A DNA stretch of 64,000 nt, from the NCBI GenBank assembly GCA_963662315.1, contig OY759353.1, forward strand, positions 32,001 to 96,000, in the 5' to 3' direction. This document shows positions 36,001 through 39,797 of this stretch, piece by piece. Origin of the DNA: Geopsychrobacteraceae bacterium (GTDB taxonomy: Bacteria > Desulfobacterota > Desulfuromonadia > Desulfuromonadales > Geopsychrobacteraceae). Every line of letters begins with the position of its first letter. Position 1 is the stretch's first letter. The position numbers were made by a program.

Positions 36001-39000
36001 GCTCTGGTCATTATCTTTCGGAAGATGCCCTGGTGAACGAAGAAGGTGGCGCTTCAGATCTGTGGAACTACCTGTCTAATGGGGTGTATGGTTTTATTGT
36101 CCCCGGGACCAGTACCTTTGCTGTATTTGGTTCTTCCGGTGGGATTAACAGTGGGATCGGCTATAAGATCACCCAGGATAACGGCAATCTGTGTGGCGGC
36201 CATTGTGCTTATGCCGCAGATGACTATTACAATTACTACTGGTTTTTTGATGTGCGCGAAATTCTGGTTGCTGAACATCCCTATGATGTCACACCGTATG
36301 CCTATGGTTCCTGGTCGGTTCCCTTTGATGATAACGGTAGGCATGCCATCATTGGTGGCACCTTTGATGAAGAGCATGGGGTTCTTTACCTGACTCTGTC
36401 CAAGGCTGGTCAGGTCGGAACCTATGACCGTCCGCCGGTTATCGTTGCCTTTCAGATCCCCTGAGACAATAGGACTTGTTGGTGTGTCAGGTGAAGCCTT
36501 CCTCTCATTATAGCGATGGTGAGGTGACTGGACTCCAGGATGATTAGCGCATATTCATTTCGTTAGGCATTTCTGGCACCTTCCTGTATGCTAAGTTCAT
36601 TGAAACTTTCTGAATAAAAACGAGGATATCGATGGAAAAGTCAAAAACGGTTGCGCTTGTCGCTCATGATAACAGAAAGCTGGATCTTATTGAGTGGGTA
36701 AAACATAACGCTCATGTGCTGAAAACGCACACCCTGTATTCAACCGGGACGACCGGACGTTTGGTTGAAGCGGCTTTGCAGGAGATTCTTCCTGCCGAAG
36801 AGTTTGCAGGGATTTCTATTACGAAATTAAAGTCAGGCCCTTTGGGGGGGGATCAGCAACTGGGGGCTCTGATTTGTGATGGTCAAATAGATATGCTGAT
36901 CTTTCTCTGGGATCCGATGGAACCTCAGCCCCATGAGGTCGATATCAAGGCCTTGCTGAGAATTTCGGTTCTTTACAATGTGCCGACCGCATGTAACCGT
37001 TCAACTGCGGATTTCATGATCTCTTCGCCACTGATGAATGAAGAGTATGCTCCGCAGCTGAAAGATTACAGTACCTATTTGAATCGGAGCCTGGGCTCCT
37101 GAATAGCTTATTTGCCCGCCAGGTAATTGCCGAGGAATTCTTTTTTGAACTCCTTATAGTTGTTATTTTCAATTGCTGTGCGGGCCTCTGCAACCATATT
37201 GAGGTAAAAGCGGACATTGTGGATTGCAGCCAGAGTCGCTGAGAGTATTTCGTTGGCATTGTACAAGTGGTGCATGTACGCGCGGGTGAAATTGCGGCAG
37301 CAATAACAGTCGCAGGACGCATCGACCGGGAAAAAGTCGCGGCGGAAGTTGCGGTTGGTCAACCGGATTTTACCCCTTTTGGTGAATAGTGTCGCACTTC
37401 GGGCATAGCGGGTTGGTATAACACAGTCGAACATATCCATACCACGCTCGATGGACTCAAGAATATCCTCTGGCAGTCCGACGCCCATCAGGTAGCGAGG
37501 TTTGTTCTTGGGCATGAAGGGTTCGGTATATTCAACCACTTTTTTCAGGAGATCGAGACCTTCACCAACACTGACGCCGCCGATAGCATAACCGGGGAAG
37601 TCCATGGCTGTCAGCTCTTCGGCGCAAATGCGGCGCAGGTCCTCGTAAACACTCCCCTGGACGATGCCGAACAGTGCCTGGTCCTGGCTGCGGGAATGAT
37701 GTTTCAGGCAGCTCTCTGCCCAACGCAGGGTTTTCTTGATCGATTTGGCGGCGTAATCATGGGTTGCCGGGTAGGGAATACACTCATCAAAGGCCATGAT
37801 AATATCCGCGCCCAGATCGTTTTCAATCTGCATGGCTTCTTTGGGACCGAGGAATATTTCTTCACCGGTTACTTCATGTCGGAAATGAACGCCGTCTTCG
37901 CCGATTCTTTTCTTGGGCAAAGAAAAAACCTGAAAACCTCCGCTGTCCGTTAAAATCGGTTTGTTCCAGTTCATGAATTTGTGCAAGCCACCAGCTTTTT
38001 TGACCAGGGCTTCACCCGGTTTCAGATGCAGGTGATAGGTATTGGAAAGGATGATCTGCGCTTCAGTTTCTTCAACCTGCGCCGGGGTCATGGCTTTCAG
38101 GGCACCATGGGTGCCAACCGGCATAAAAATGGGGGTCTCAATAACGCCATGGGGCGTTTCGAGTCGTCCTCTGCGGGCCCTCGTGTTACTATCTTCATTC
38201 AACAGGGTAAATTGAAACATCCTTATCCTTTCTTGTGTTCAGGCAATTTCGATCAATCGCTAGACTTGTAGCAGAAAATCAAGGTTTGGCGCAATGAAAT
38301 CGGTGAACTGATGTCATACTTTTCCGACATACTGCCACAATTACGCCAAGCTGCCTACCTGCGCTGTCACTTTCAGCTTGAATTCCTGAGGCCGGTGACG
38401 CTGCCGCAGGGGGCATTGCTGCAATTGCGCCGGGAGTTTTTTGCTGCCCTAAAAGGACTGAAAGAACAGGGGGAGGGAGCTTTACTGTCCCGGTTAGAAC
38501 AGCTGCTTTCCCCCCCGTTGCCGGCTGCGCAATTATTGCGAACCCAGGTCAAAAGTCCTCCCCCGGGAGTTGTTTTGTCTTTTGACTGTCTGCAGGCGCA
38601 AAGTTTTCGACCTGGGGATTCCATGACCCTTACGGCGTTGTTTATTGGTGATGCTATCGCTAACGCGGCTGATTTCTTAACTCTGCTGCGAATTCTTGGT
38701 ACGCGGGGGGTATATTGTGGGAGCGGCCACTATGCAGTCAACGTTATCCTGGTGGAAAATGCCAACGGTGAAGTTGAGAATCTTACTGTTAAAGAAAGTG
38801 ATGAGCTGTTGATGCATAGTCCTGTTTGTGATTTTCAATGGTGGCTGGACAATCTGGCTCCGCAGGGAGAACAGCTGATTGTTGAGGTATATAGTCCGTT
38901 AAGACTGCAGAAAGCGGGTAAGCCTGTATTTCGACCGGATGTTGCAACCTTTGTAGACGCTCTGGTCAGAAGGGTCTCATCCCTGCTGGCTTATCATTGC

Positions 39001-39797
39001 CATATTGACATCGACTATGATCAATGGGAACTTGATGCTCTGTTGAGTGTAGTTGGCCCTGGTCTCAATAAGCTCAGATGGCAGGATTGGCGACGATTAC
39101 AGGGGGCGTTCAAACAGCAAAAAATAGGAGGCGTTCTTGGTCGTCTGGAGTTATTAAGGTGTGGTTCAACAGACCTTTTTTATTTGCTCAACCTCGGACA
39201 ACTCTTTAACCTGGGCAAGAGCGCCGCTTTTGGCTCTGGCCAATACCGGTTGCTATCTTCATAATAAATAAGGATACTTGGGGTATGGCCTGTTATACTT
39301 CATTCTCTTTTTGGTTCATTTAATTCTTTAATCAATGGAGGCTTTATGTTTTGGTTTATTGTGTTTCTGCTTATGCTTGGAGCGGTTTTTTACATGTACC
39401 AGAATCTCAGGACCATCGAAAAAGAAATTCTTGAAGAGCAGCAGAAGGAAAAGGAAGAGTTCTGCCAGAGTAAAAATCCTGAACCCAAGCCAGTTACCCT
39501 TCATGCTGTTGACGCAGTAAAAAGTAGTATTAATAGTGATAATTCACCAGAAGCGGATAATGAAATCATCGCGCTTATTAAAGCGAACCCAGGGATAAAA
39601 CAGACAGAATTGTATGCCCGGATCACTGAAGGGAATACCAAACAGGTTCAGCAGCTGTTAAAGAAAATGTCTGATGATGGCGAAATAAAGAGAGAAAAAG
39701 ACGGTAGTTCATATCGTCTTTATGTATAGCTGATTGCTGAATATAAAAAAGGTGGCTCATGTGAGCCACCTTTTTTAGGTCTGATATCGACCGCTTA

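Follow-up and report, generated by a model that had tools for sequence, protein, structure and literature searches.

A CRISPR-independent Cas6-family gene as a vertically inherited core gene of the Desulfuromonadales, with a predicted role on host RNA

We find that a solo Cas6-family gene, here called cas6L, is passed on vertically as a core gene of the order Desulfuromonadales and evolves under purifying selection. In a Geopsychrobacteraceae bacterium (GCA_963662315.1) it occupies positions 38311-39264 on the forward strand of the window (the whole 64-kb stretch of DNA analyzed here) and encodes 317 aa. The explanation we consider probable is that cas6L is a captured Cas6 carried, free of CRISPR, as a core gene within an old block of housekeeping genes, with a predicted role on a host RNA stem-loop. 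Exchange of Cas proteins between defence systems and mobile elements is established; a core Cas6 in a class-wide housekeeping block would show clearly that host RNA metabolism can take over an enzyme of CRISPR RNA processing. The clade consists of metal- and sulfur-reducing bacteria, and since it holds genetically tractable, much-studied metal reducers, the function of cas6L is directly testable.

A Cas6-family protein outside CRISPR-cas loci

The translated reading frame comprises a pair of RRM domains and, towards the C-terminus, a glycine-rich loop of the kind found in Cas6 (GKSAAFGSG, residues 302-310). PF10040 matches residues 191-312 (E = 3.2e-11; 44.2 bits, cut-off 25) and has no other match in the whole genome. 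The PADLOC Cas6 model PDLC01477 scores 149 bits, a precomputed annotation adds PF27225 (AF_1859_N), and none of the NCBIfam models matches the protein. The AlphaFold2 model, built from a 67-sequence alignment with a rich co-variation signal, has a pLDDT of 92.1 and a pTM of 0.92, and it displays the Cas6 topology of tandem RRM (ferredoxin-like) domains; confidence is poor (pLDDT 58) only in the variable stretch that faces the RNA, residues 261-270. Cas6 chains top both structure searches with this model (Z from 20.5 to 11, 213-257 residues aligned). In the Foldseek search against the PDB the top matches are all Cas6, led by 6dd5 (2.8e-13) and followed by 4c9d, 3zfv, 6fjw, 4ill, and 7kft. The Cas6 fold that the first-pass annotation had assigned is thereby confirmed, and the protein is a member of the Cas6 family.

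The best structural match is to the Cas6-RT-Cas1 fusions (6dd5 from Marinomonas mediterranea MMB-1; 7kft and 7kfu from Thiomicrospira), which align over 247-257 residues with VIA-align Z scores of 20.5 (6dd5) and 18.9 (7kft) and are also the only significant PDB sequence matches (E = 1.2e-6 and 6.8e-5). Both share with cas6L a W-x-D motif, the glycine-rich loop, and an Arg that starts helix alpha1. Unlike these proteins, cas6L is unfused and has no array or cas genes nearby, and the identity is 15-18%.

The window holds no cas gene and no array. The genome has two CRISPR arrays, at contig positions 4151210-4154730 and 4437564-4438161, which would lie ~0.63 and ~0.34 Mb from cas6L across the origin if the single contig is circular. 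The first-pass annotation was right in placing the gene far from the CRISPR loci, but its distance of 4 Mb does not hold for a circle. That annotation assigned the arrays to types I-C and V-B, systems that are not known to use Cas6. The genome has no match to PF01881 and only borderline matches to the Cas10 palm. At least 60 of the 107 order genomes with cas6L are without a Cas1 match, among them two single-contig genomes (G018 and G061), and genomes that bear type III systems carry their own, separate cas6. Because cas6L has no CRISPR-cas context, and so many genomes keep it without Cas1, we regard it as a Cas6 by descent and not a cas gene by function. The independence from CRISPR proposed earlier is thus well supported: of the 121 order genomes, 107 carry cas6L against 47 with Cas1, and the arrays here are hundreds of kilobases away.

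Distribution, origin, and selection

In an even sample of the order (121 genomes, 27 families), cas6L has an intact frame in those 107 genomes and in 26 of the 27 families, and it is found in other families of the class as well. Its absence is concentrated in one family, f5 (0 of 12 genomes), all 12 members of which have two TGT matches. TGT matches occur in all 121 genomes, with exactly two in 109. The earlier picture of a single-copy core gene stands, with family f5 as the main exception, and that of exactly two tgt genes per genome holds for most genomes but not for all; the scope it gave, the order, was too narrow, since other class families likewise have the solo gene and two tgt genes. 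Genomes with two tgt genes and no Cas6-like gene, a kind it had noted, make up family f5. Orthologues of p99, a Zn-ribbon protein encoded next to cas6L in many genomes, occur in 89 of the 121 order genomes and in none of five genomes that represent other class families; the profile of tmHTH, a further neighbor, matches in 53 of 121 and in no member of f5.

The nearest sequence relatives are stand-alone type III-A Cas6 proteins of the same phylum (PF27225 plus PF10040; E = 1e-54 to 1e-20), encoded in operons of the form cas6-Cas_NE0113-cas10-csm2-5. Of ten loci fetched for the closest relatives, nine have Cas_NE0113 and/or cas10 and csm genes behind cas6, whereas at L100 the gene stands solo, adjoining frdB. 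Length, two-RRM layout, R40, R198, R221, W257, D259, and the glycine-rich loop are common to cas6L and the type III-A proteins. The latter keep a GSxLRGxFG frame, a four-Cys knuckle, an RYSxRQ segment, and H300, whereas the solo family of the order has none of these. They are also patchy in distribution and confined to cas operons, while cas6L is core, syntenic, and vertically inherited.

Profile scores separate the groups: the cas6L profile gives at least 247 bits, full-length, inside the order and at most 183 bits outside it, and the PADLOC Cas6 scores fall in steps from CRISPR-linked genes (325-366) to a solo gene of another class family (203) and cas6L itself (149). A 94-row tree has a branch with SH-aLRT support of 99 that parts the solo genes, those of other class families included, from all eight verified CRISPR-linked genes. 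Since the solo genes are split from type III-A cas6 by a well-supported branch, the data fit a single old domestication. The solo protein of L100, the only one inspected from another class family, has retained the four Cys. The Zn knuckle and the RNA-facing motifs were lost step by step, a natural series in which to study how the RNA specificity of a Cas6 is rewired. At another locus of the same class (L132), a Cas6-profile match has no frd or tgt neighbor in the stretch fetched.

Over seven orthologue pairs, dN/dS is 0.10-0.23 for cas6L, compared with 0.025-0.08 for tgt2 and 0.03-0.08 for eno; cas6L evolves three to six times faster than its neighbors (omega ~0.16 versus ~0.03 for tgt2). Together with its presence in the large majority of genomes, these values bear out its status as a core gene.

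Other cas families are likewise found outside adaptive immunity, as solo Cas4, as casposon Cas1-solo, and in exapted CRISPR-Cas variants, according to excerpts of two papers (PMC5704561; PMC6452270). As described there, those are on mobile elements or patchy, unlike cas6L. The portions of the literature consulted describe no Cas6 that a whole class keeps as a core, syntenic member of a housekeeping block.

Conserved residues and possible RNA activity

Across 67 cas6L-family sequences, the invariant residues are G113, P196, R198, R221, W257, D259, G274, G302, and G310; G308 is nearly so, K303 is conserved at 88%, and R40 and R220 at 90% or more. Of the invariants listed by the first-pass annotation, R198, R221, W257, and D259 remain so in this larger set, but R40 and R220 do not. 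The same set has no invariant His, as had been stated.

R40 is the candidate for an active-site residue, being present in 96% of the solo sequences and in 96% of the CRISPR-like ones. It probably matches R37 of Thiomicrospira Cas6-RT-Cas1, whose replacement (R37A) lowers repeat cleavage from 97% to 12% (excerpt of PMC8102632). Residues 6-317 of the cas6L model align with chain residues 1-305 of 7kft, which places R37 near R40/R41; the equivalence is drawn from alignment ranges and motif position rather than from a residue-level superposition, and profile searches against PDB sequences, in which 7kft and 6dd5 aligned through their C-terminal halves only, lend it no support from sequence. The G/S frame that flanks R40 in the CRISPR-linked relatives is lost, as are the four-Cys knuckle, RYSxRQ, and H300. 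These losses suggest that the RNA specificity of cas6L has changed. Given the conserved glycine-rich loop, basic residues, and alpha1 Arg, the protein plausibly still binds or cuts RNA, and most likely it is a CRISPR-independent binder or cutter of hairpins in host RNA. Nevertheless, since the motifs of the CRISPR-linked relatives are gone, the protein may have traded catalysis, or even RNA binding, for a different role. We found no RNA target, and beside cas6L we detected no conserved hairpin except the terminator of frdB (see below). Near cas6L the Rfam scan returned no family (one T-box is found at 59445-59668), and ARAGORN found no tRNA within the window.

Gene order around cas6L and tgt2

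The neighbor that had first drawn attention to cas6L is tgt2 (37108-38220, reverse strand), which diverges from it across a gap of 90 bp. The presence of a complete second tgt gene back to back with the Cas6-like gene is confirmed: tgt2 is matched by PF01702 (533 bits, positions 2-355 of 357) and at the equivalog level by TIGR00430 (530 bits, cut-off 306.75), making it a full-length tRNA-guanine transglycosylase of the bacterial type. The genome has two TGT matches; the other, tgt1 (contig 105999-107111), is the only one in the queA-tgt-yajC-secDF setting. The two proteins are 49% identical and have in common DSGGFQ, FDEC, GMDMFDCV (GxDMFDCV), and CDCYCCRN...H (CDCYxCRN), stretches that we take to hold the catalytic Asp and the Zn site (CxCxxC...H) of Tgt. 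Across 47 related loci tgt2 is 68-97% identical. Its recurrent neighbor on the same strand is a gene for a 260-aa LRV-like protein, not cas6L.

We compared gene order in 25 family representatives and, separately, in 51 related loci, which are skewed to near relatives because they were found with 12 closer alignment rows. The ancestral layout has tgt2 and the LRV gene on the reverse strand, then frdCAB, a terminator, cas6L, p99, ftsH, and tmHTH on the forward strand, and eno on the reverse strand. frdCAB is directly upstream of cas6L in 12 of the 25 representatives, and in nine it lies between cas6L and tgt2; frdCAB and the terminator also separate the two genes in five solo loci of other class families. 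tgt2 is linked to cas6L in 21 of 25 representatives (within 5.3 kb) and in 47 of the 51 related loci, and eno in 19 of 25. The closeness of the two genes described earlier therefore holds, with the qualification that frdCAB often intervenes. In one family only, f9, do tgt2, LRV, cas6L, and p99 follow one another on one strand, with gaps of at most 19 bp or overlaps. The six f5 loci examined have kept tgt2, its LRV partner, and ftsH, and five of them eno. This genome and its nearest relatives are without p99 and have ftsH elsewhere.

In this genome and in 22 of 22 loci, frdB is followed directly by a strong hairpin with a T-run. The stem of this hairpin is similar in several families, and we take the element to be a terminator rather than a Cas6 target. 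Co-transcription of cas6L with frdCAB, with cas6L processing that mRNA, is unlikely given this terminator.

Since frdCAB and a terminator stand between tgt2 and cas6L in the older layout, which other class families share with the order, the direct adjacency seen here is secondary and arose through the departure of frdCAB. It looks like inherited gene order rather than shared function, which bears out the caveat, raised in the first-pass annotation itself, that the linkage may be inherited synteny; family f5, which is without cas6L but has kept tgt2, points the same way. Direct adjacency of this kind can mislead unless the ancestral gene order is reconstructed.

Alternative explanations

In the favored scenario, cas6L stems from the Cas6 endoribonuclease at the head of type III-A CRISPR-cas operons. 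A single capture near the base of the class (Desulfuromonas, Desulfuromusa, Malonomonas, Geopsychrobacteraceae, Geothermobacter) was followed by vertical inheritance, in one chromosomal copy and away from any CRISPR locus. Here frdCAB, p99, ftsH, and the LRV gene are elsewhere in the genome or missing, and an accident of rearrangement has left cas6L back to back with tgt2. We regard fold, family, freedom from CRISPR, the one origin, purifying selection, and the history of gene order as shown, and the RNA function as inferred: a specific stem-loop would still be bound by the glycine-rich loop together with a basic groove (R198, R220/R221, K303), cutting may have been retained through R40, and the target would be some host RNA. 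A more specific version, in which a Cas6 domesticated at the root of the class (Geobacter/Desulfuromonas relatives) acts as a host factor that processes or chaperones stem-loop RNA, maybe with p99, tmHTH, and FtsH, is put forward only tentatively; if true, it would give a Cas6-family protein its first housekeeping job.

The partnership with Tgt2 that had been proposed for the protein, for example presenting a non-tRNA RNA or a special tRNA precursor for 7-deazaguanine exchange, has the frequent linkage of the two genes in its favor, along with the class-wide occurrence of both the solo Cas6 and a second tgt and the tight co-directional packing in f9. However, frdCAB and the terminator intervene in nine of the 21 linked representatives and in the five loci from other families, the two genes are divergently transcribed, eno is linked almost as often as tgt2, and the selection regimes of the two genes differ strongly. 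Family f5 keeps two TGT matches in all 12 genomes, and tgt2 with LRV in the six loci examined, in the absence of cas6L; moreover, three families of the phylum (f50, f78, and f90) have two TGT matches and Cas6-profile matches of at most 183 bits, the range of the CRISPR-linked loci examined. We find the partnership unsupported and consider it quite improbable. A role with the co-directional downstream genes is more likely than one with Tgt2. cas6L would then be a regulator or processing factor of operon RNA, or a subunit of a membrane-linked complex, acting with p99, FtsH, and tmHTH, and p99 would replace the lost four-Cys knuckle. The one-strand order cas6L-p99-(ftsH)-tmHTH speaks for this, with p99 in 23 of the 25 representatives and ftsH and tmHTH in many, as does the absence of p99 from the other class families, where L100 still has its four Cys. 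In f5 the profiles of cas6L, p99, and tmHTH are all missing (0 of 12), while ftsH, which elsewhere lies between p99 and tmHTH, is kept in the six loci examined; this co-loss is confined to one clade and so counts as a single event. Set against it are the lack of p99 in this genome and its nearest relatives, where ftsH is elsewhere, and in family f10 (0 of 7 genomes), and the restriction of the tmHTH profile to 53 of 121 genomes. As p99 and tmHTH are missing from many genomes with cas6L, no single partner explains why it is retained, and we regard this arrangement as rather unlikely.

Continued service in CRISPR immunity, with pre-crRNA processed in trans for distant arrays, would suit a Cas6-family protein, and there are known cases of a stand-alone cas6 serving arrays elsewhere. 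This role is nevertheless close to refuted, and we give it very little credence: most genomes with cas6L have no Cas1 match, type III genomes have their own cas6, the system types assigned to the arrays here are not known to use Cas6, and cas6L has lost the RNA-recognition motifs of its CRISPR-linked relatives. Its faster evolution and lost motifs might instead mark a decaying, functionless relic of a lost type III locus, which is equally hard to credit. An intact frame across 26 of 27 families and beyond the order, nine invariant residues, and a confident model rich in co-variation all oppose decay, and the selection data bring the relic reading close to refutation.

The cas6L locus in this genome

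The divergent intergenic region read between tgt2 and cas6L (38221-38310, 90 bp) presumably holds the putative promoters of both genes; a consensus scan of it found no sigma-70-like site. On the strand of cas6L and 82 bp downstream of it is tmHTH (39346-39729, forward strand), whose 127-aa product begins with a membrane helix, continues with an acidic linker, and ends in a winged-helix-like domain (weak HTH_HVO_0163_N match, E = 0.004), and whose position downstream of cas6L is conserved in related loci. Between tmHTH and the convergent eno we read an inverted repeat with an A-run and a T-run as its flanks (39745-39776), likely a two-way terminator; its loop is below the minimum of the pattern scan, which did not list it. 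The enolase gene eno (39795-41081, reverse strand; TIGR01060, 715 bits) forms the right-hand border of the synteny block and is found in the same place in related loci, where it is 83-99% identical. On the other side, convergent with tgt2, mgsA (methylglyoxal synthase; 36632-37102, forward strand; NF003559, 207 bits) fills the place held elsewhere by the LRV partner of tgt2, and the LRV-like gene of this genome is at contig positions 926786-927526.

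A solo Cas6-like gene between tgt2 and eno

The solo Cas6-like gene, cas6L, occupies window positions 38311-39264 on the forward strand and encodes 317 aa. A gap of 90 bp separates it from the second tRNA-guanine transglycosylase gene, tgt2 (37108-38220, reverse strand), whose product is a full-length Tgt at the equivalog level (TIGR00430, 530 bits). On the far side of tgt2 lies mgsA (36632-37102, +), and between mgsA and an MJ1255-type glycosyltransferase gene is a 415-aa ORF (35217-36464, +) with no Pfam or NCBIfam match. Downstream of cas6L, after 82 bp, comes tmHTH (39346-39729, +; 127 aa, a membrane helix plus a winged helix), and an inverted repeat with flanking A- and T-runs lies between tmHTH and eno (39795-41081, -). 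These are followed by a family-2 glycosyltransferase gene (41203-42288, +) and the adjoining ahcY (42450-43889, +), a pair kept beside eno in related loci; the glycosyltransferase barely exceeds the cut-off of the arsenosugar biosynthesis model TIGR04283 (187.7 bits, cut-off 182).

PF10040 covers residues 191-312 of Cas6L (E 3.2e-11; 44 bits, with the cut-off at 25), and no NCBIfam model matches the protein. It is the genome's only PF10040 match, and there are two TGT matches. The other tgt gene, tgt1 (contig 105999-107111, outside the window), is flanked by a 344-aa ORF on one side and by ORFs of 119, 532, and 302 aa on the other, which we read, from ORF order and sizes rather than a family scan, as queA-tgt-yajC-secD-secF. 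At 49% identity, the two Tgt proteins have in common the motif stretches that carry the catalytic Asp residues and the Zn-binding site.

Cas6 fold, distribution, and CRISPR independence

The assignment of a Cas6 fold in the first-pass annotation is borne out. From an alignment of 67 family members, AlphaFold2 gives a model with a pLDDT of 92.1 and a pTM of 0.92; Foldseek against the PDB places only Cas6 chains at the top (6dd5, 2.8e-13, then 4c9d, 3zfv, 6fjw, 4ill, and 7kft); and VIA-align gives Z scores of 20.5 with 6dd5 (257 residues aligned, rmsd 3.6) and 18.9 with 7kft (247 residues, rmsd 3.1), above the scores of ∼8-10 for other RAMP proteins. Among PDB sequences, the family profile picks up nothing beyond the Cas6 domains of the two Cas6-RT-Cas1 proteins. 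The conserved residues listed by the same annotation also hold in the family alignment: G113, P196, R198, R221, W257, D259, G274, G302, and G310 are invariant, and R40 and R220 nearly so.

Of 121 genomes sampled evenly from the order Desulfuromonadales, 107 carry cas6L, and these cover 26 of 27 families. The 14 genomes without it comprise an entire family, f5 (12 genomes), and two that are 72% and 86% complete. Cas1 occurs in only 47 of the 121; no fewer than 60 genomes therefore have cas6L but no Cas1, two single-contig genomes among them. Both CRISPR arrays of the source genome are far from the cas6L locus; a PF01881 profile search of that genome gave no match, and its Cas10-palm matches are borderline only. 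The earlier reading of cas6L as a domesticated, CRISPR-independent Cas6 is supported. The order-wide occurrence claimed for it is real, and the limit to the order was too narrow, since it holds across the class. Related loci are recorded under Geopsychrobacteraceae, Desulfuromusa, Malonomonas, Desulfuromonas, Geothermobacter, and relatives.

A phmmer search of 1.84 billion representative proteins with Cas6L returned 1383 hits at E ≤0.001, only 46 of them below 1e-30. Matches outside the order, in 301 genomes sampled across the phylum, score at most 183 bits; full-length matches inside the order score at least 247 bits. Databases label the members of this family "hypothetical protein" or [quoted passage not shown] and a literature search, with subscription journals and supplements outside its scope, listed no publication that deals with a solo or housekeeping Cas6 in this group of bacteria.

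Origin and selection

We fetched ten loci with the best out-of-order Cas6 matches and weaker second matches within the order. In nine, the genes after cas6 are Cas_NE0113 and/or cas10 with csm2-csm4, and some of the CRISPR-linked loci adjoin arrays or cas1; the cas6 genes of these nine head type III-A-like operons. The remaining locus, L100, belongs to another family of the class and holds a solo cas6 adjoining frdB. One type III-A locus, from the window's own family (L104, G084:C106, 8076-12127; cas6, NE0113, cas10, and further genes), adjoins GGDEF, frdB-like, and frdA-like genes; this echo of the frdB-cas6L adjacency could be coincidental, or could mark the place of the ancestral locus.

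The maximum-likelihood tree, built with IQ-TREE in quick mode, with SH-aLRT as its only support measure and a midpoint root for display, has 94 rows: 34 of the 67 solo sequences, five solo sequences from other families of the class, eight verified CRISPR-linked genes, and 47 representatives of unassigned context. A branch with support 99 separates every solo gene from all eight CRISPR-linked genes. A long stem of 1.13 changes per site (support 100) leads to the order's genes, with the solo genes of the other class families as their sister group (support 98). PADLOC Cas6 scores step down from 325-366 to 203 and then 149 bits. A single domestication followed by vertical descent would fit this tree and the stepwise scores. 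In seven orthologue pairs, dN/dS is 0.10-0.23 for cas6L, compared with 0.025-0.08 for tgt2 and 0.03-0.08 for eno; cas6L is therefore under purifying selection, looser than that on tgt2 and eno.

Motif comparison and possible function

We compared the 67 solo sequences with 55 CRISPR-like ones (the eight of verified context and the 47 representatives that group with them). Both groups have G113, P196, R198, R220/R221, W257, D259, the GG..G segment, and the loop G-K-x-x-x-F/Y-G-x-G, and R40 occurs in 96% of each. Of the two groups, only the CRISPR-like one has the GSxLRGxFG frame around the Arg at the R40 position, a four-Cys cluster after helix α1, P-H-P, the segment R-Y-S-x-R-Q-x-x-M after W-x-D-W, and H300. 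The L100 solo protein retains the four Cys and is missing the other CRISPR-like motifs.

In the Thiomicrospira Cas6-RT-Cas1 complex, one report names R37 as the Cas6 active-site residue, with R37A lowering repeat cleavage from 97% to 12% (PMC8102632). VIA-align pairs model residues 6-317 of Cas6L with residues 1-305 of the 7kft chain, and by these alignment ranges, as distinct from a residue-level match, the Thiomicrospira R37 would fall beside R40/R41. Catalytic residues are described in a review as differing among Cas6 proteins (PMC6452270), so the absence of an invariant His from Cas6L says little. We conclude that Cas6L probably retains RNA binding, that it may cleave RNA, and that its RNA specificity is altered.

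Gene order and the link to tgt2

Among 51 near-relative loci, tgt2 lies within the fetched stretch in 47, as the direct divergent neighbor of cas6L in 40 and ∼4 kb off in seven. Identity across these loci is 68%-97% for tgt2 and 83%-99% for eno, and only 25%-59% for cas6L. One locus per family (25 of the 26 cas6L-bearing families) gives, apart from the same-strand arrangement of family f9 described below, direct divergent adjacency in 11, an intervening frdC-frdA-frdB with the orientation of cas6L in nine, frdCAB upstream with tgt2 beyond the fetched stretch in three (two of which end at contig ends), and neither in one. frdCAB is thus directly upstream of cas6L in 12 of 25. Five of six loci from other class families also have tgt and then frdCAB-cas6L, often followed by ftsH, so the layout containing frdCAB is the older; all five genomes behind these loci have two TGT matches. 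The source genome carries frdCAB at contig 395075-398410, and its ftsH is likewise away from the cas6L locus.

Downstream of frdB, 22 of 22 loci and the source genome have a strong GC-rich hairpin and a T-run, so cas6L begins its own transcription unit. We treat the hairpin as an ordinary terminator; its stem is alike in several families (GGGCGGGTC-like), including the source genome with its relocated frdCAB (contig ∼398440-398500).

The proposal that Cas6L partners Tgt2 is not supported. The sole observation that fits it comes from the representative of one family (f9, one of 25), in which tgt2, a 268-aa gene, cas6L, and p99 (the gene for a 99-aa Zn-ribbon protein) are all on the same strand. 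Against this, the older layout places frdCAB between the two genes, and eno is within the stretch nearly as often as tgt2 (19 and 21 of 25 representatives, respectively). Family f5, which lacks cas6L, still has two or three TGT matches in 12 of 12 genomes and keeps the order tgt2, ftsH in six loci, with eno next in five and an LRV-like gene after tgt2 in four. This LRV-like gene, the recurrent same-strand neighbor of tgt2, follows it in most families of the order, f5 included (L112:9346-10152, L068:7888-8685, and L071:4167-4940, all on the reverse strand; source genome, contig 926786-927526, outside the window). Its 260-aa product matches no Pfam family, "leucine rich repeat variant" being an automatic cluster name. 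As a candidate partner of Tgt2, this protein is preferable to Cas6L. Given the older frdCAB layout, the eno linkage, f5, and the LRV-like neighbor, the tgt2-cas6L adjacency is best read as inherited gene order within an old, since rearranged block.

tgt2 itself is a very conserved second tgt. All 10 class genomes of the phylum sample have two TGT matches. Two matches also occur in a few other families of the phylum (f50, f78, and f90), most genomes there having one.

Downstream same-strand genes

In 23 of 25 family representatives, cas6L is followed by p99, and directly so in most of the order (for example, L060:4513-4812, +, and L122:7909-8208, -). The protein, which is highly conserved (61% mean column identity), combines a helix at its N terminus with a four-Cys Zn ribbon (Zn_ribbon_TFIIB, PF13453, E 4e-13). 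Among the 121 order genomes, its profile matches 89, with none in f5, in family f10, or in the source genome's genus; five genomes from other class families gave no orthologue-level match. tmHTH follows p99 or ftsH, and its profile matches 53 of the 121, with none in f5. That f5 lacks cas6L, p99, and tmHTH yet has the intervening ftsH hints at a common role, as does the appearance of p99 in an order whose Cas6L no longer has a Cys cluster of its own. The hint is limited, because f5 is a single clade and the source genome is without p99. Elsewhere in the window, the sole Rfam match is a T-box leader at 59445-59668 (+; RF00230, 131.9 bits).
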